A stretch of 64,000 nucleotides of DNA from Pristiophorus japonicus (lineage: Eukaryota). The stretch covers positions 17,856,001-17,920,000 of the forward strand of contig NC_091993.1 in NCBI RefSeq assembly GCF_044704955.1, written 5' to 3'. The position numbers were made by a program, and so were the translations under genes. Shown piece by piece: positions 35,042-60,874 of this stretch; the stretch's first letter is position 1; the number at the start of each line of letters is the position of its first letter. Under the pieces are notes generated by a model. The model did no database searches. It was not told the origin of the DNA and was given only the letters and a program-made list of their open reading frames with translations.

Positions 35042-35730
35042 TAAGTCTTCCTGGTGCTGTGGCAATCTTTTCATGGTCGCACACTGCAATAGTCTGGTTT
35101 TAGTTTAGCATATGTTGTCAAAATTGTACAACATTTCAGTTCTTTAAGACCAAGCGAATACTCAGAATAACAAGAGGGAAGGAAATTTTGCTGAAATATT
35201 GGTTCTACGTGTGACCAATCTGGCATCACTGGCTGTTCTTATAGATGGATGGTTGTACGTTCAGACTATTTTGGCATATTGGCTTTTAAACACCATGCAC
35301 TGACTCCCCCTGGTGAATCAAAGCAAACTGTTGAAAATAATTGCCGTTATTTATCAATAAGTAATTTCAAGTGGTTAGAAGACTGGCCCTGAATTTGCGG
35401 TCGGCATGACGGCGTACTCTGAGTATGTCTTCATACTGCCTTTGAAATTGACCGCAAGTTTGGGATTTAAGCGCATGCGCTAAATCCTGAACTTACGATC
35501 TGTCAAACTCCAAATAGAAAGATGATCCGCTGCGACTTTCAAATCCTTATTGCTGCCGAAAAGTTGGGCTAATTGCCCACCAACTGCGCATCAATTATGC
35601 TGGAAAGTTTTACGACCACTACAAACAGGCACAGGAGCCTGTCTGCACAGCGTAAGGGGAGGGGGGGGATGAGAAAATTGTGCAATAATTTAAACTGAAC
35701 ACATAAAACAACCTACCAGGCAGCTGTAAA

Positions 35731-36186
35731 AGCTTCGGCGGCAGTCGGGAGCAGCGTCGAGGAGGTGCATGGAGAGGCCTATAAAAGGCACAGCAGGTCC
35801 GGGGCCCAGCGTCGGCGGCAGTCGGGAGCAGCGTCGAGGAGGTGCATGGAGAGGCCTATAAAAGGCACAGCAGGGAGTCCGGGGCCCAGCGTCGGCGGCA
35901 GTCGGGAGCAGCGTCGAGGAGGTGCGTGGAGAGGCCTATAAAAGGCACAGCAGGGAGTCCGGGGCCCAGCGTCGGCGGCAGTCGGGAGCAGCGTCGAGGA
36001 GGTGCGTGGAGAGGCCTATAAAAGGCACAGCAGGGAGTCCGGGGCCCAGCGTCGGCGGCAGTCGGGAGCAGCGTCGAGGAGGTGCGTGGAGAGGCCTATA
36101 AAAGGCACAGCAGGGAGTCCGGGGCCCAGCGTCGGCGGCAGTCGGGAGCAGCGTCGAGGAGGTGCGTGGAGAGGCCTATAAAAGGC
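35731..36186 (+). repeat. 80-bp tandem monomer array (~5.7 copies), one TATAAAAG per unit
   Basis: CGGCGGCAG at 35736, 35813, 35893, 35973, 36053 and 36133. TATA at 35780, 35857, 35937, 36017, 36097 and 36177. The first unit lacks 3 nt. Confidence 0.97.
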
Positions 36187-36368
36187 GTACTTGTGCAGCT
36201 ACAGGGAGAAGGCAAAAAAGAAGTAGAAAGAAATCAAAAGGCGACGTCACAGCCAAGAGGGTAAGTGATTGGCTGGTGATTGGTGAGTAGTTTTTCTTTT
36301 TTCTCCTATGTCAGTGAGTAACTTTTAATATTGTTGTTGCCAATTTAAGTGTATATAAGGGTTAAGTC

Positions 36369-37316
36369 ATGGCAGGAGAGCTCGGTCGGGTGTTATGCTC
36401 CTCCTGTACCATGTGGGAACTCAGGGACACTTCCGGTGTCCCTGACGATTACGTGTGCGGGAAGTGTATCCGCCTCCAGCTCCTGACAGACCGCGTTGCG
36501 GAGTTGGAGTTGAGGGTGGATTCACTCTGGAGCATCCACGATGCTGAGAATGACGTGAGTATCACGTGTAGCGAGTTGGTCGTACCACAGGGAAAGGGTC
36601 CACAGCCAGATAGGGAATGGAAGACCAACAGGAAGAGCAGTGCAAGGAAGGTAGTGCAGGAGTCCCCTGTCGTCATCCCCCTGCAAAACAGATACACTGC
36701 TTTGGGTACTGTTGAGGGGGATGACTCATCAGGGGAGGGCAGCAGCAGCCAAGTTCATGGCACCGTGGCTGGCTCTGCTGCACAGGAGGGCAGGAAAAAG
36801 AGTGGGAGAGCAATAGTGATTGGGGATTCAATGGTGAGGGGAATAGATAGGCGTTTCTGCGGCCGCAACCGAGACTCCAGGATGGTATGTTGCCTCCCTG
36901 GTGCAAGGGTCAAGGATGTCTCGGAGCGGGTGCAGGACATTCTAAAAAGGGAGGGAGAACAGCCAGTTGTCGTGGTGCACATTGGTACCAACGACATAGG
37001 TAAAAAGAGGGATGAGGTCCTACGAAACGAATTTAAGGAGCTAGGAGCTAAATTAAAAAGTAGGACCTCAAAAGTAGTAATCTCGGGATTGCTACCAGTG
37101 CCACGTGATAGTCAGAGTAGGAATCGCAGGATAGCGCAGATGAATACGTGGCTTGAGCAGTGGTGCAACAGGGAGGGATTCAAATTCCTGGGGCATTGGA
37201 ACCAGTTCTGGGGGAGGTGGGACCAGTACAAACCGGACGGTCTGCACCTTGGCAGGACCGGAACCAATGTCCTAGGGGGAGTGTTTGCTAGTGCTGTTGG
37301 GGAGGATTTAAACTGA
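36369..37316 (+). CDS. CR1 ORF1p (zinc finger/leucine zipper plus SGNH esterase-like domain)
   Basis: CSSC...CGKC, LTDRVAELELRVDSL, GDSM, HIGTND and DGLH motifs; 315 aa. Confidence 0.93.
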   Translation: MAGELGRVLCSSCTMWELRDTSGVPDDYVCGKCIRLQLLTDRVAELELRVDSLWSIHDAENDVSITCSELVVPQGKGPQPDREWKTNRKSSARKVVQESPVVIPLQNRYTALGTVEGDDSSGEGSSSQVHGTVAGSAAQEGRKKSGRAIVIGDSMVRGIDRRFCGRNRDSRMVCCLPGARVKDVSERVQDILKREGEQPVVVVHIGTNDIGKKRDEVLRNEFKELGAKLKSRTSKVVISGLLPVPRDSQSRNRRIAQMNTWLEQWCNREGFKFLGHWNQFWGRWDQYKPDGLHLGRTGTNVLGGVFASAVGEDLN

Positions 37317-37393
37317 TATGGCAGGGGGATGGGAACCAATGCAGGGAGACAGAGGGAAACAAAAAGGAGGCAAAAGCAAAAGACAGAAAGGAG

Positions 37394-40300
37394 ATGAGGA
37401 AAAGTGGAGGGCAGAGAAACCCAAGGCAAAGAACAAAAAGGGCCACTGTACAGCAAAATTCTAAAAGGACAAAGGGTGTTAAAAGAACAAGCCTGAAGGC
37501 TTTGTGTCTTAATGCAAGGAGTATCCGCAATAAAGTGGATGAATTAATTGTGCAAATAGATGTTAACAGATATGATGTGATTGGGATTACGGAGACGTGG
37601 CTCCAGGATGATCAGGGCTGGGAACTCAACATCCAGGGATATTCAACATTCAGGAAAGATAGAATAAAAGGAAAAGGAGGTGGGGTAGCATTGCTGGTTA
37701 AGGAGCAAATTAAGGCAATAGTTCGGAAGGACATTAGCTTGGATGATGTGGAATCTATATGGGTAGAGCTGCAGAATACCAAAGGACAAAAAACGTTAGT
37801 GGGAGTTGTGTACAGACCTCCAAACAGTAGTAGTGATGTTGGGGAGGGCATCAAACATGAAATTAGGGGTGCGTGCAATAAAGGTGCAGCAGTTATAATG
37901 GGTAACTTTAATATGCACATAGATTGGGTTAACCAAACTGGAAGCAATACGGTAGAGGAGGATTTCCTGGAGTGCATAAGGGATGGTTTTTTAGACCAAT
38001 ATGTCGAGGAACCAACTAGGGGGGAGGCCATCTTAGACTGGGTGTTGTGTAATGAGAGAGGATTAATTAGCAATCTCGTTGTGCGAGGCCCCTTGGGGAA
38101 GAGTGACCATAATATGGTGGAATTCTGCATTAGGATGGAGAATGAAACAGTTAATTCAGAGACCATGGTCCAGAACTTAAAGAAGGGTAACTTTGAAGGT
38201 ATGAGGCGTGAATTGGCTAGGATAGATTGGCGAATGATACTGAAGGGGTTGACTGTGGATGGGCAATGGCAGACATTTAGAGACCGCATGGATGAACTGC
38301 AACAATTGTACATTCCTGTCTGGCGTAAAAATAAAAAAGGGAAGGTGGCTCAACCGTGGCTATCAAGGAAAATCAGGGATAGCATTAAAGCCAAGGAAGT
38401 GGCATACAAATTGGCCAGAAATAGCAGAGAACCCGGGGACTGGGAGAAATTTAGAACTCAGCAGAGGAGGACAAAGGGTTTGATTAGGGCAGGGAAAATG
38501 GAGTACGAGAAGAAGCTTGCAGGGAACATTAAGACGGATTGCAAAAGTTTCTATAGATATGTAAAGAGAAAAAGGTTAGTAAAGACAAACGTAGGTCCCC
38601 TGCAGTCAGAATCAGGGGAAGTCATAACGGGGAACAAAGAAATGGCGGACCAATTGAACAAGTACTTTGGTTCGGTATTCACTGAGGAGGACACAAACAA
38701 CCTTCCGGATATAAAAGGGGTCGGAGGGTCTAGTAAGGAGGAGGAACTGAGGGAAATCCTTATTAGTCGGGAAATTGTGTTGGGGAAATTGATGGGATTG
38801 AAGGCCGATAAATCCCCAGGGCCTGATGGACTGCATCCCAGAGTACTTAAGGAGATGGCCTTGGAAATAGTGGATGCATTGACAGTCATTTTCCAACATT
38901 CCATTGACTCTGGATCAGTTCCTATGGAGTGGAGGGTAGCCAATGTAACCCCACTTTTTAAAAAAGGAGGGAGAGAGAAAACAGGGAATTACAGACCGGT
39001 CAGCCTGACATCGGTAGTAGGTAAAATGATGGAATCAATTATTAAGGATGTCATCGCAGTGCATTTGGAAAGAGGTAATATGATAGGTCCAAGTCAGCAT
39101 GGATTTGTGAAAGGGAAATCATGCTTGACAAATCTTCTGGAATTTTTTGAGGATGTTTCCAGTAGAGTGGACAAGGGAGAACCAGTTGATGTGGTATATT
39201 TGGACTTTCAGAAGGCTTTCGACAAGGTCCTACACAAGAGATTAATGTGCAAAGTTAAAGCACATGGGATTGGGGGTAGTGTGCTGACATGGATTGAGAA
39301 CTGGTTGTCAGACAGGAAGCAAAGAGTAGGAGTAAATGGGGACTTTTCAGAATGGCAGGCAGTGACTAGTGGGGTACCGCAAGGTTCTGTGCTGGGGCCC
39401 CAGCTGTTTACACTGTACATTAATGATTTAGACGAGGGGATTAAATGTAGTATCTCCAAATTTGCGGATGACACTAAGTTGGGTGGCAGTGTGAGCTGCA
39501 AGGAGGATTCTATGAGGCTGCAGAGCGACTTGGATAGGTTAGGTGAGTGGGCAAATGCATGGCAGATGAAGTATAATGTGGATAAATGTGAGGTTATCCA
39601 CTTTGGTGGTAAAAACAGAGAGACAGACTATTATCTGAATGGTGACAGATTAGGAAAAGGGGAGGTGCAAAGAGACCTGGGTGTCATGGTACATCAGTCA
39701 TTGAAGGTTGGCATGCAGGTACAGCAGGCGGTTAAGAAAGCAAATGGCATGTTGGCCTTCATAGCGAGGGGATTTGAGTACAAGGGCAGGGAGGTGTTGC
39801 TACAATTGTACAGGGCCTTGGTGAGGCCACACCTGGAGTATTGTGTACAGTTTTGGTCTCCTAACCTGAGGAAGGACATTCTTGCTATTGAGGGAGTGCA
39901 GCAAAGGTTCACCAGACTGATTCCCGGGATGGCGGGACTGACCTATCAAGAAAGACTGGATCAACTGGGCTTGTATTCACTGGAGTTCAGAAGAATGAGA
40001 GGGGACCTCATAGAAACGTTTAAAATTCTGACGGGGTTAGACAGGTTAGATGCAGGAAGAATGTTCCCAATGTTGGGGAAGTCCAGAACCAGGGGACACA
40101 GTCTAAGGATAAGGGGGAAGCCATTTAGGACCGAGATGAGGAGGAATTTCTTCACCCAGAGAGTGGTGAACCTGTGGAATTCTCTACCACAGAAAGTTGT
40201 TGAGGCCAATTCACTAAATATATTCAAAAAGGAGTTAGATGAAGTCCTTACTACTAGGGGAATCAAGGGGTATGGTGAGAAAGCAGGAATGGGGTACTGA
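37394..40300 (+). CDS. CR1 ORF2p (APE endonuclease plus reverse transcriptase)
   Basis: ITETWL, VYRPP, GNFN (normally GDFN), SDH; YLDFQKAFD, GVPQGSVLGP, KFADD. 968 aa uninterrupted; frame open upstream to 37292. Confidence 0.96.
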   Translation: MRKSGGQRNPRQRTKRATVQQNSKRTKGVKRTSLKALCLNARSIRNKVDELIVQIDVNRYDVIGITETWLQDDQGWELNIQGYSTFRKDRIKGKGGGVALLVKEQIKAIVRKDISLDDVESIWVELQNTKGQKTLVGVVYRPPNSSSDVGEGIKHEIRGACNKGAAVIMGNFNMHIDWVNQTGSNTVEEDFLECIRDGFLDQYVEEPTRGEAILDWVLCNERGLISNLVVRGPLGKSDHNMVEFCIRMENETVNSETMVQNLKKGNFEGMRRELARIDWRMILKGLTVDGQWQTFRDRMDELQQLYIPVWRKNKKGKVAQPWLSRKIRDSIKAKEVAYKLARNSREPGDWEKFRTQQRRTKGLIRAGKMEYEKKLAGNIKTDCKSFYRYVKRKRLVKTNVGPLQSESGEVITGNKEMADQLNKYFGSVFTEEDTNNLPDIKGVGGSSKEEELREILISREIVLGKLMGLKADKSPGPDGLHPRVLKEMALEIVDALTVIFQHSIDSGSVPMEWRVANVTPLFKKGGREKTGNYRPVSLTSVVGKMMESIIKDVIAVHLERGNMIGPSQHGFVKGKSCLTNLLEFFEDVSSRVDKGEPVDVVYLDFQKAFDKVLHKRLMCKVKAHGIGGSVLTWIENWLSDRKQRVGVNGDFSEWQAVTSGVPQGSVLGPQLFTLYINDLDEGIKCSISKFADDTKLGGSVSCKEDSMRLQSDLDRLGEWANAWQMKYNVDKCEVIHFGGKNRETDYYLNGDRLGKGEVQRDLGVMVHQSLKVGMQVQQAVKKANGMLAFIARGFEYKGREVLLQLYRALVRPHLEYCVQFWSPNLRKDILAIEGVQQRFTRLIPGMAGLTYQERLDQLGLYSLEFRRMRGDLIETFKILTGLDRLDAGRMFPMLGKSRTRGHSLRIRGKPFRTEMRRNFFTQRVVNLWNSLPQKVVEANSLNIFKKELDEVLTTRGIKGYGEKAGMGY

Positions 40301-40866
40301 AGTTGCATGTTCAGCCATGAACTCATTGAATGGCGGTGCAGGCTAGAAGGGCCGAATGGCCTACTCCTGCACCTATTTTCTATGTTTCTATGTTTGAGGG
40401 ATGTGATTGTTTTAAAAAAAAAATGTAATCTTGCAGTCTTCCGTAAATAACTGTACTTACTCAAAAGTATTCCCAAAAAGCACAGTACTATACCTGTCAA
40501 ATACATATAATTAGTATTACACTGTTAAATTTAAAAGTTGTAATACATGGGGTTTCTATGTTTCATGATTGGCTAGTGAAAGGAGCGCCACCTCACGTGA
40601 TCCCAAGTACGTTTACGCGCTCCTGGGATCCGTGGGCCACTGCGCTTGGGGCTTCGCATCAGGTAAGTGCGGATTTCGTTCGGAGGTTGGCGGTGTACTC
40701 CTCAGCTACGCCGCCGATCGCAATTTCGGGGCCATGGTGTTTTGACTTTGTACACACAATGTGTACGTTCCTGAAGCAGCACACATACTCGAACCGTGGA
40801 GGTGACTGCAGTATTGTTTGTTCCGTCCTTTGGATGGAGTTGTGTAGCCGTGATGATGTAAGATAA

Positions 40867-41133
<267 letters not shown>

Positions 41134-58359: not shown

Positions 58360-58483
58360 GCGCTCAAGCCGAGGCTCCGATTGGCACCCAGTAAGCCCCG
58401 CCCTTGCTGCGCGCTGATTGGACACACGGCGCCGTCGGTTAGATGACGTCGAGAGGCAGGTTGTCCGGCCGATTCGGGCGGCG
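58360..58483 (+). promoter_or_regulatory. PDCD7 CpG-island promoter
   Basis: Reverse CCAAT (ATTGG) at 58380 and 58417, GC box GCCCCGCCC 58395-58403, CRE-like TGACGTC 58444-58450. Confidence 0.7.
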
Positions 58484-60355
58484 ATGGAGCGGCCGCCATT
58501 TTATCCCGGCCACCCCGAGCGGCGCAATGGGCCGCCAGCGGCGCCTTTCGCTTCGCAGAACCCAAGCCGCGATTCTTTTCATAACCCGGGGAGTCGGAGT
58601 GAGGAGAAACCCGGCCCGGCGTTCCCTCCCCCCCGGCAGCATGGCTTCGCTGGGCCGGGGAGAGGCCGGGCCGCGGAAGACTGGAGGCCTGGTCCACCCT
58701 CGGAGAACTACCTACACCCGGGCCGGGCCCCGGGCGGGCCTGGGAGCAGTCTGGGCAGAGCGGAGCCGCTAGAAGAGCACGGCCAGCACTGGGATCAGGA
58801 GTACCGGGAGCACCCAGCCCACCTGCGGAGCTTCCCTCCCCACCCACAGGGACATCAGCACCTGGAGGGTGCCCCCCACCCATGGGGCCGGGACCACCCT
58901 CCTCCTCACCCACTGGCTCCGCAGCACCGAGACCACCCTCTTCCTCACCCACCAGCTCCATCACACCAAAACCACCCTCCTCTTCACCCACCGGCTCCGC
59001 AGCACCGAGACCACCCTCCTCTTCACCCACCGGCTCCGCAGCACCGAGACCACCCTCCTCTTCACCCACCGGCTCCGCAGCACCGAGACCACCCTCCTCC
59101 TCACGCACCGGCTCCGCAGCATCGTGACCACCCTCCTCACCCGCAGGAACATCAGCACCAGGACCATCCGCCTCACCCACAAGGACATGAGCGTCCCCAC
59201 CACCCGTGGGATCGTGATCACCTAGGTCAACCTCCCCAGCTACAGAACTACCCTCCTCTCCCACTGGGTCACGAGCAGAAGGACCATCTGCCCCACCTGC
59301 AAGGGTATGAATGCAGAGACCAAGCTCGCCTCGCGCAGGGATTTCCCCACCAGGACCGCTCAGCTCATCAGTATCCAGAACATTATCCTCAGCAGGGACA
59401 GTCCTATCATCGTCCTCAACATCCCTTTCAACACAAACACCTAGATTCCCAGCAACAGTATCCGTTTCGGGAACCTTCACATCCCGAGCAACATCCACCC
59501 TTCTCTGAGAAAGCTGGAGTTGCCAACAATGTGCCACCTCACATCCACAGCATGACTTCCCAATCTGTGGACAGCTCGTGCCAGAACCAAACCTTACTTC
59601 ATGGCGGAGGCTTTAATTTACCTGCTGGCTATGGACCTCAAAATTCTCAGTTGATAAATCCTAGCCATAACATCCATAATAATCAACAAACCTTTCCAAC
59701 TTTATCAGGGGAGAGACCGTCTTGGAAAAATGATCATGGCATGCAGTGTAACAATGATCAGATGGCAACACCATGGCCCAATGCTGCTAATTTTTCACCG
59801 AGTCCGAAAGATGTCAGTGTGGAACAACTGAATAGAAATGACTCAATGACCAGAATGTCGGCTCCAGACCAGTTCTCTCACAATTTTAAATGTAATGAAT
59901 CTCCAAATGAGCAAGATGAATTTTGGCTTATGAGGTTCTTGTCAAGACGAAGGTTGCAGTCTTCTGAGATTAAAAAACCCAAATCTTTACCATTAATTAG
60001 TGAAGTAAAGGAATCAGTACTAAGTGCTTGTAAACTTGTGACTGAGCTTACTGCTTTATGCCAGCAATTGAGGCACAATGTGGAAAATGAAGCAGTTTGG
60101 AATGAATCTTATCTAAAAGCAGTTGAAATAAAGACGGTGTTACAGGAAAAATTAAAGACACTAAATGATAGCGAGTACATCAGTGCTGTTAAAAAGAAAC
60201 TGGAAGCAATTAAAAAGAAAAGAAGCAGTATTCAAAGAAAGAAGCAAGAGTGGTATTTAGAAAAAGAAGAGGAAGAGACCAGGGCGGCAGAAAAGGAAGC
60301 AAAAATTGATGGATGGAGAATGAAGCGTGTTCGAGAAGTTGAAGAAAAAAAGCGG
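58484..60355 (+). CDS. PDCD7: PDCD7 (programmed cell death 7 / U11-59K) coding exon 1
   Basis: ATG in strong context (gcgATGg); MERPPFYPG... then a Pro/His-rich region, then a coiled-coil ending IDGWRMKRVREVEEKKR; CGG|gtactg donor; 624 codons, joins exon 2 in frame. Confidence 0.88.
58907..59180 (+). repeat. Coding 39-bp tandem repeat (HPPAPQHRDHPPL) in PDCD7 exon 1
   Basis: Units start at 58907, 58946, 58985, 59024, 59063 and 59102, followed by degenerate shorter units. Confidence 0.92.
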
Positions 60356-60874
60356 GTACTGAGTCGTATCATTGTATTGCATGTGTGATCAGGGCATGGT
60401 GATCTTCATATCTTACCAATTGTAATATCCAGGCAGTTACAAAAATACATTGTTAACTGGGGTAAATAAAACCATGTAGATTTGAGGCCTGTTTGTAGAT
60501 TACTCCGCTCTGTAAATACTTTAACTCTCACTGCTGGCCATGATCTACCCTTTATTCGAAACTGATGATTAGAAGGATATTCGGGATGTGCTTGTTCCGT
60601 TACATGTTCAGGTGATGGCACTGGTACAATTCCCTGGTAGCCATTCTCCATGTGTGAACCTAGATGTCAAATGCCAGTCAGCTATTTGGCTGTGAGGGGC
60701 ATCACAGCCCAGTTCTGTTCTTGGCTGGTAGTGACATGCACTGTTTGCAGCAAAGGCCACTGGATAGTAATCAGAAATGACCAACCAGGCAGATTCCTCC
60801 ATTGTGTAACATAGATGCATAAAGGCAATTGTTGCACCCCGGCAGCTACTTCAGCACATAATTTAATTTGGAAA

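Follow-up and report, generated by a model that had tools for sequence, protein, structure and literature searches.

How the second open reading frame (ORF) of a long interspersed nuclear element (LINE) is translated has been called an open and important question (PMC3894237). The same question is raised by a LINE copy in the genome of Pristiophorus japonicus. The copy is intact and spans ~35730-40392 of the window, by which we mean the whole stretch of 64,000 nucleotides (nt) analysed (contig NC_091993.1, positions 17,856,001 to 17,920,000, forward strand). Judging from its sequence, this CR1 LINE probably expresses ORF2 by programmed -1 frameshifting at the end of ORF1, which would give a predicted fusion of about 1310 amino acids (aa). 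The features on which the argument depends are listed below, in window coordinates.

36369-37316, + strand: ORF1, 315 aa, ending in ...GEDLN-stop, with a GDSL/SGNH esterase at aa 153-298
37292-37316, + strand: overlap of ORF1 and ORF2, 25 nt
37307-37313, + strand: slippery heptamer T_TTA_AAC, the predicted -1 shift site
37314-37316, + strand: ORF1 stop, immediately 3' of the heptamer; TGA in the window copy, whereas relatives have TAA or TAG
37292-40300, + strand: ORF2, stop to stop, with endonuclease at ~37535-38110 and reverse transcriptase (RT) at ~38969-39628
37313-37510, + strand: basic linker in the -1 frame, ~66 codons, ahead of the endonuclease motif, with a lineage-specific ATG at 37394
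37321-37356, + strand: candidate stimulator region, made of the G-rich tract GGGGGATGGG (37324-37333), a weak predicted hairpin (37321-37342) and four G-runs to 37356

A slippery heptamer at the ORF1 stop

The initial annotation had noted that the ORF1 end, GAT TTA AAC TGA, puts TTTAAAC in X_XXY_YYZ phase. Its coordinates were recomputed and are correct: the heptamer lies inside the overlap, the -1 frame is open over 37292-40300 with its first ATG at 37394, and the predicted fusion is 1310 aa long. This is the sole canonical in-phase heptamer of ORF1 and the sole TTTAAAC within 36369-40300; TTA makes up 17 of the 115 Leu codons of the element. By itself the motif is not rare in the window, where TTTAAACTRR is seen 3 times for 1.21 expected and 16 of 100 shuffles reach 3, and its conservation in relatives was therefore tested. 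The case beyond chance rests on that conservation, not on the window copy. The stop adjoining the heptamer is a possible pause signal; in one umbravirus, a stop adjoining the shift site matters (PMC5009743). A second canonical heptamer, G_GGA_AAC, is present in ORF2 phase at 37354-37360, 41 nt downstream, and is absent from the sister family A2 described below.

Conservation of the heptamer in copies and lineages

Copies were gathered from 151 loci, from which 4 mis-anchored or indel-bearing loci and 4 duplicates were removed, leaving 143. The filter allowed at most one mismatch in the heptamer, so that the conservation counts are slightly flattered. Among the 30 copies closest to the window's own, which belong to what we call family A, TTTAAAC and GTTAAAC were each found 15 times. 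Over 85 family-A copies, departures at heptamer bases 2 to 7 numbered 0, 0, 1, 0, 0 and 3. TTTAAAC-TAA was found in 25 of 30 copies of a sister family, A2 (~80% protein identity), and TTTAAAC in 22 of 30 copies of a distant, older lineage, B (21 of 25 in a second set). A stop in the -1 frame stands 5 codons ahead of the heptamer in 122 of the 143 copies.

A metagenome scan with a pattern taken from mid-ORF1 gave 14 loci and one readable CR1-type junction, L159, where TTTAAAC-TAG is followed by an endonuclease in the -1 frame with no Met ahead of it. Among the remaining loci, 3 ran off the contig end, 4 had an early stop and 4 were L2-type, with TGA-C and no heptamer; in addition, L166 has Leu-Asn-stop written as CTG AAC, lacks an endonuclease match and clusters with L2-type proteins. 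Scans of viral contigs with three alignments found no CR1 loci and only two weak esterase matches, a scan of genome contigs gave only 5 weak matches (22-28% identity), and a phage search with the homologue P0121 found nothing. At strict cut-offs, the window's own genome gave no match to P0126 or P0062, an uninformative outcome.

Five lineages with 40-82% C-terminal protein identity (A, A2, B1, B2 and L159) were then compared for codon usage over the final 45 codons of ORF1. The residue is identical in 14 columns, Met and Trp excluded, and the codon is identical in only 3 of these: one His, the terminal Leu (TTA) and the terminal Asn (AAC). Deep lineage pairs have synonymous codons in common at only 4 of 18 to 10 of 20 positions. 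The proposal that the heptamer is fixed at synonymous sites thus stood for the TTA and AAC codons, kept across lineages, but not for the first base, which is G in about half of family A.

The history of this first base was read from a copy tree of 105 rows, 9 copies with short homology being left out. With the root on A2, which carries T, the basal family-A copies have G, and two young supported clades (0.96 and 0.97), one of which includes the window copy, have T; terminal branches measured 0.0045 versus 0.0165. T clades nested among G copies fit a return to the canonical site, but this is suggestive only, given a weak backbone, a sample biased towards intact copies and possible recombination. 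G_UUA_AAC was in any case sufficient for amplification.

Covariation at the ORF1 C terminus

Proteins offered a second view of the site. From 209 homologues, 138 reach the last esterase block and 84 remain below 70% identity, a set not picked by C-terminal residues. Asn is terminal in 51 of the 84, preceded by Leu (35), Gly (10), Lys (1) or others (5); the three named residues all have XXA codons. For X_XXA_AAC to be slippery, the codon ahead of it must moreover end in X, so that the preceding residue is constrained as well. Residues without a T-ending codon (E, K, Q, M, W) were never found ahead of Leu-Asn (0 of 35; background 0.20, nominal P 5e-4), and were found ahead of Gly-Asn in 8 of 10 cases, all Gln (Fisher 2e-7). 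This covariation fits what U_UUA_AAC and G_GGA_AAC would respectively require. Together with A_AAA_AAC, both are listed among the shiftiest heptamers (PMC5009743).

In a phylogeny of the esterase (71 rows, quick method), all 25 rows of the vertebrate clade end in Leu-Asn, six L2-type rows do not, and the endings in a sister clade switch among Leu-Asn, Gly-Asn, Lys-Asn and others. Named tetrapod homologues (anole, lizard, snake, monitor, turtles, frog and swallow) have the Leu-Asn ending. The profile match to 4C1B, the solved ORF1-encoded esterase that is the closest structure (E 1.8e-37), stops at position 306 of 310; as L2-type relatives also lack the Leu-Asn end, the esterase fold seems not to need it. 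Some sister-clade ORF1s (P0160, P0163, P0179, P0182, P0207; P0116, P0130, P0146, P0169, P0191) have Lys-Asn or Phe-Phe/Phe-Leu at the usual end and run on beyond it, which would be compatible with A_AAA_AAY or U_UUU_UUN sites.

Frame and start codon of ORF2

As the initial annotation anticipated, ORF2 is in the -1 frame relative to ORF1 in every lineage with a readable copy. The distance from the heptamer to the endonuclease Asn codon is 197, 197, 206, 161 and 98 nt in the five readable copies, all of which give -1. Majority-column counts gave 206 nt for B1 and 269 nt for B2, both again -1, the B2 value being ambiguous; 206 nt is also the modal length in B1 (6 of 19 copies). In two ray gene models, the esterase, GFKL, the linker and the endonuclease follow one another without a change of frame. 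Among 25 longer homologues, none was a full-length ORF1-ORF2 fusion protein, which is weak evidence. Seven family-A copies (L068, L069, L070, L073, L078, L082 and L084) have 12 nt more in the linker and differ at the start of the endonuclease; they are possibly mosaics, and their frame is still -1.

Asked whether the AUG at 37394 is conserved, the alignments answered no. It is kept in family A, replaced in A2 by another Met 10 codons earlier, and absent from L159. B1 has a Met at codon 41 or none, neither L159 nor L049 has a Met between the site and the endonuclease motif, and in the remaining lineages the linker Met is at codon 27, 15-17 or 41.

A G-rich tract downstream of the stop

A G-quadruplex had also been proposed as the stimulator of the shift. 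The four G-runs begin where they were said to (37324, 37331, 37344 and 37354), with loops of 2, 10 and 7, and they are largely confined to family A (79 of 88 copies). The four-run form is not conserved elsewhere: it was found in 1 of 30 copies of A2, in 5 of 22 of another lineage and not in the single L159. Quadruplexes can stimulate shifting at UUUAAAC, best at a spacing of 6-8 nt and with short loops (PMC3919603). As a general stimulator the four-run quadruplex was rejected, since it is not conserved and, with 19 loop bases, lies beyond the 10 at which activity is already falling (PMC3919603).

A run of at least four G begins 8-10 nt past the heptamer in most A, A2 and B1 copies and in L159; the background chance of such a run in the element is 0.09 for four G and 0.02 for five. 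A similar tract is found in most rows of the published consensus library considered below. The hairpin predicted at 37321-37342 is weak (-8.1 kcal/mol, z -3.06, 7-nt spacer) and not common to distant lineages. In 2013 and 2016, natural G-rich frameshift stimulators were reported as not yet known (PMC3919603, PMC5009743), and the CR1 tract is a candidate for one. In six of the old copies L031-L060 (L032, L036, L040, L053, L056 and L060) the tract just 3' of the stop is expanded, as is typical for unstable poly-G tracts.

Published consensus sequences

In the consensus library of PMC13343379, the first 400 bases of each entry were examined and junctions were judged by eye. Matches to TTTAAAC plus stop in CR1-group consensuses numbered 23, of which 18, from 12 species, lie at the ORF1-end position (halosaur, alligator, bowfin, bullfrog, elephant shark, crocodile, stingray, coelacanth, bearded dragon, sawfish, catshark and dogfish). 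As this search was conditioned on the motif itself, controls were run. Six of the eleven other spellings of Leu-Asn, followed by TAG, gave 14 matches in these entries, and first-base variants of the heptamer gave 11, none of either at the ORF1 end. In the part of the library covered without a search term, the motif was present in both alligator rows that show the junction. ScyCan_CR1-1a and SquAca_CR1-6c are open in the -1 frame, counted by eye, and the junction of the window copy is near-identical, again by eye, to that of ScyCan_CR1-1a.

Proposed mechanism and alternatives

The Gag-Pol-like -1 fusion put forward in the initial annotation is thus supported by codon conservation, the -1 frame, a mobile AUG and covariation, the frameshifting itself being what we infer from them. 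Most ribosomes would terminate once Asn has been added. In a minority, held up by the adjacent stop, by the G-rich element 8-10 nt downstream or by both, tRNA-Leu and tRNA-Asn would re-pair one base back (UUU AAA), and these ribosomes would read ...GEDLN-LIWQG... on into the endonuclease. Abundant ORF1 protein would then be made alongside a rarer esterase-endonuclease-RT fusion of ~1310 aa. Backup reinitiation at the linker AUG is possible in some lineages.

Several observations weigh against this proposal. The first base differs from the modal one in 43 of 85 distinct family-A copies, nearly all G_TTA_AAC, which means that a weaker site spread widely; equine arteritis virus tolerates G_UU(A) (PMC5009743). 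No strong conserved stem-loop or pseudoknot was found after the site in eight copies (-1.7 to -9.1 kcal/mol), and a search of Rfam gave no match. Single old B1 copies carry no frame signal (-1 in 7, 0 in 7 and +1 in 5; P 0.46), and in DNA so rich in purines the lack of stops in the linker says little (P 0.04-0.52 per copy). Among the published consensuses, AllMis_CR1-1b and PogVit_CR1-2 are not in -1 by eye as printed, their 5' ends being gappy. On the protein side, 33 of the 84 proteins are not Asn-terminal; part of these are L2-type, and the others either run past a possible site or lack an explanation. The G_GGA_AAC and A_AAA_AAC heptamers of the sister clade are deduced from protein alone, and the P values overstate independence, as lineages and rows are related. 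Finally, the linker AUG is kept in 64 of 64 open family-A copies and 17 of 17 open A2 copies, and the one at 37394 has a purine at -3.

This retained AUG speaks for what we regard as an unlikely route, in which ORF2 is a separate protein made by termination-reinitiation, either at an L1-like linker AUG or at a SART1-like UAAUG or near-cognate AUA, and the conserved bases are the context of termination or reinitiation. Reinitiation is the route reported for L1 and SART1 (PMC5972666), and a UGGGA at 37218 could be counted in its favour, though Trp-Asp codons explain it. The L1 arrangement is not what was found: the ORFs overlap, and the ORF2 AUG shifts in position among lineages and is missing from L159 and L049. 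As to SART1, the codon that overlaps the stop in the -1 frame reads ATA in 111 of the 143 copies, ATT in 10 and ATG in 3, the window copy not being among these last, and TAATG is seen in 3 of 18 consensus rows; the same codon is AAT in 15 copies and GAA in L159. Reinitiation, moreover, predicts neither the X_XXA_AAC covariation nor a spacer that always preserves the -1 frame.

The frame could also be changed in the RNA, by polymerase slippage in the T/A run or by splicing that joins ORF1 to ORF2. An old copy with an extra base in the heptamer run (L038) and the two ray gene models fused in frame at the site would agree with this, but no pyrimidine tract for a splice acceptor was found 3' of the site, runs of three are short for polymerase slippage, and a motif in triplet phase points to the ribosome; we consider such a change very improbable. 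Least probable of all is that Leu-Asn-stop is kept for the sake of the ORF1 C terminus, with the heptamer as a by-product. In nearly all vertebrate-clade proteins that end does stand at a constant 26 residues from the catalytic D-x-x-H block. A need for these residues does not, however, account for the fixed synonymous codons, for Gly-Asn or Lys-Asn replacing Leu-Asn at variable distances in the sister clade, for a third-last residue that obeys the codon rule, or for L2-type esterases without the motif.

Frameshifting at U_UUA_AAC being the preferred reading for this element, we lean, with less assurance, towards a broader one. Here -1 frameshifting would be the ancestral and general ORF2 route of esterase-type CR1, from chimaeras and sharks to amphibians, reptiles and birds, and of the sister clade with G_GGA_AAC or A_AAA_AAC. 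Its stimulators would be the adjacent stop and a G-rich element (a two-tier quadruplex or a protein-bound one), and the L2 sister clade would obtain the same fusion by stop readthrough.

Comparison with known systems

U_UUA_AAC is the shift site of infectious bronchitis coronavirus, and viral and retroviral -1 sites resemble the CR1 junction in heptamer and phase, in a short overlap and in a polymerase in the -1 frame (PMC5009743). Unlike them, the CR1 junction is hosted by a non-long-terminal-repeat element, has a stop right after the heptamer, followed by a G-rich tract, and showed no strong pseudoknot. Among retrotransposons, TRE5-A and TRE3-A of Dictyostelium need a -1 frameshift for ORF2 according to a review (PMC5911963); they differ from CR1 in host group, in ORF1 and in targeting tRNA genes. 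L1 and SART1 have, as CR1 does, a bicistronic LINE RNA and a low ORF2 output, but they make a separate ORF2 protein, from an AUG after a 63-nt spacer or from UAAUG (PMC3894237, PMC5972666).

The ORF1 esterase of the zebrafish L2-clade element ZfL2-1 (4C1B) is homologous to that of CR1. Kajikawa in 2012 reportedly proposed that its ORF2 is expressed by stop suppression, also as a fusion; that route is a frame-0 readthrough, unlike the -1 shift proposed for CR1. In the four L2-type loci of the metagenome scan (L161, L162, L165 and L171), ORF1 ends in TGA-C (CAT, CAA, CAA and CTA-G), without a heptamer and with frame 0 open behind it; L161 and L165 have a frame-0 endonuclease match, and L162 and L171 come to an early end. 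TGA-C is a readthrough context, a parallel to the proposed CR1 frameshift.

Searches of the accessible literature for frameshifting in CR1 or LINEs found no report of this site; an earlier mention in subscription papers, including the CR1 descriptions of the 1990s, is possible. The words frameshift, overlap, translation, start codon, readthrough and fusion do not occur in the main text of the 2026 CR1 survey PMC13343379, which thus does not discuss the recoding site. The mechanism is known from viruses, and its use across CR1 appears to be undescribed in that literature. Most vertebrates have CR1-group elements as their dominant retrotransposons, and in sharks and rays these make up 22-34% of the genome (PMC13343379). 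If true, a conserved -1 frameshift would answer the question of ORF2 translation for CR1, the working enzyme would be an esterase-endonuclease-RT fusion made at a set ratio, and annotations in which CR1 ORF2 begins at an internal Met would be wrong. With frameshifting in CR1 and readthrough in L2, LINEs would mirror both retroviral Gag-Pol strategies.

Element anatomy and neighbouring sequences

Two further features delimit the element.

35731-36186, + strand: tandem array of an 80-bp unit, 5.7 times, at the 5' end of the element
40377-40392, + strand: 3' tail of two TTTCTATG octamers

From its position, the 80-bp array is probably part of the 5' untranslated region. The 3' end carries the octamer repeat and no poly-A, and we take such a tail to be CR1-type. 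ORF1 matches the esterase family PF13472 (E 1.7e-13), ORF2 has both an APE endonuclease and an RT, and the nearest named ORF1 relatives are from sharks, rays and one chimaera. On its esterase ORF1, APE and RT in ORF2 and octamer tail, the element is an esterase-type CR1 LINE of a cartilaginous fish. The canonical esterase-ORF1 CR1 LINEs of vertebrates have the same esterase ORF1, endonuclease-RT ORF2 and octamer tail (PMC13343379).

Read depth drops sharply over 37365-37457 in four mapped runs, in a thinly covered region, and no conclusion was drawn from it. One ORF1 homologue, P0007, is a CR1 ORF1 at 62% identity labelled Pseudomonas aeruginosa in NCBI, probably through host contamination of that assembly. 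Downstream of the element, 40894-41055 is a probable host exon, a short piece without a Pfam match that presumably resembles ClpX; the LINE would then sit in an intron of that gene, in sense direction. A 656-aa open frame with tandem Pro/His-rich repeats at 58418-60388 is probably also a host exon.

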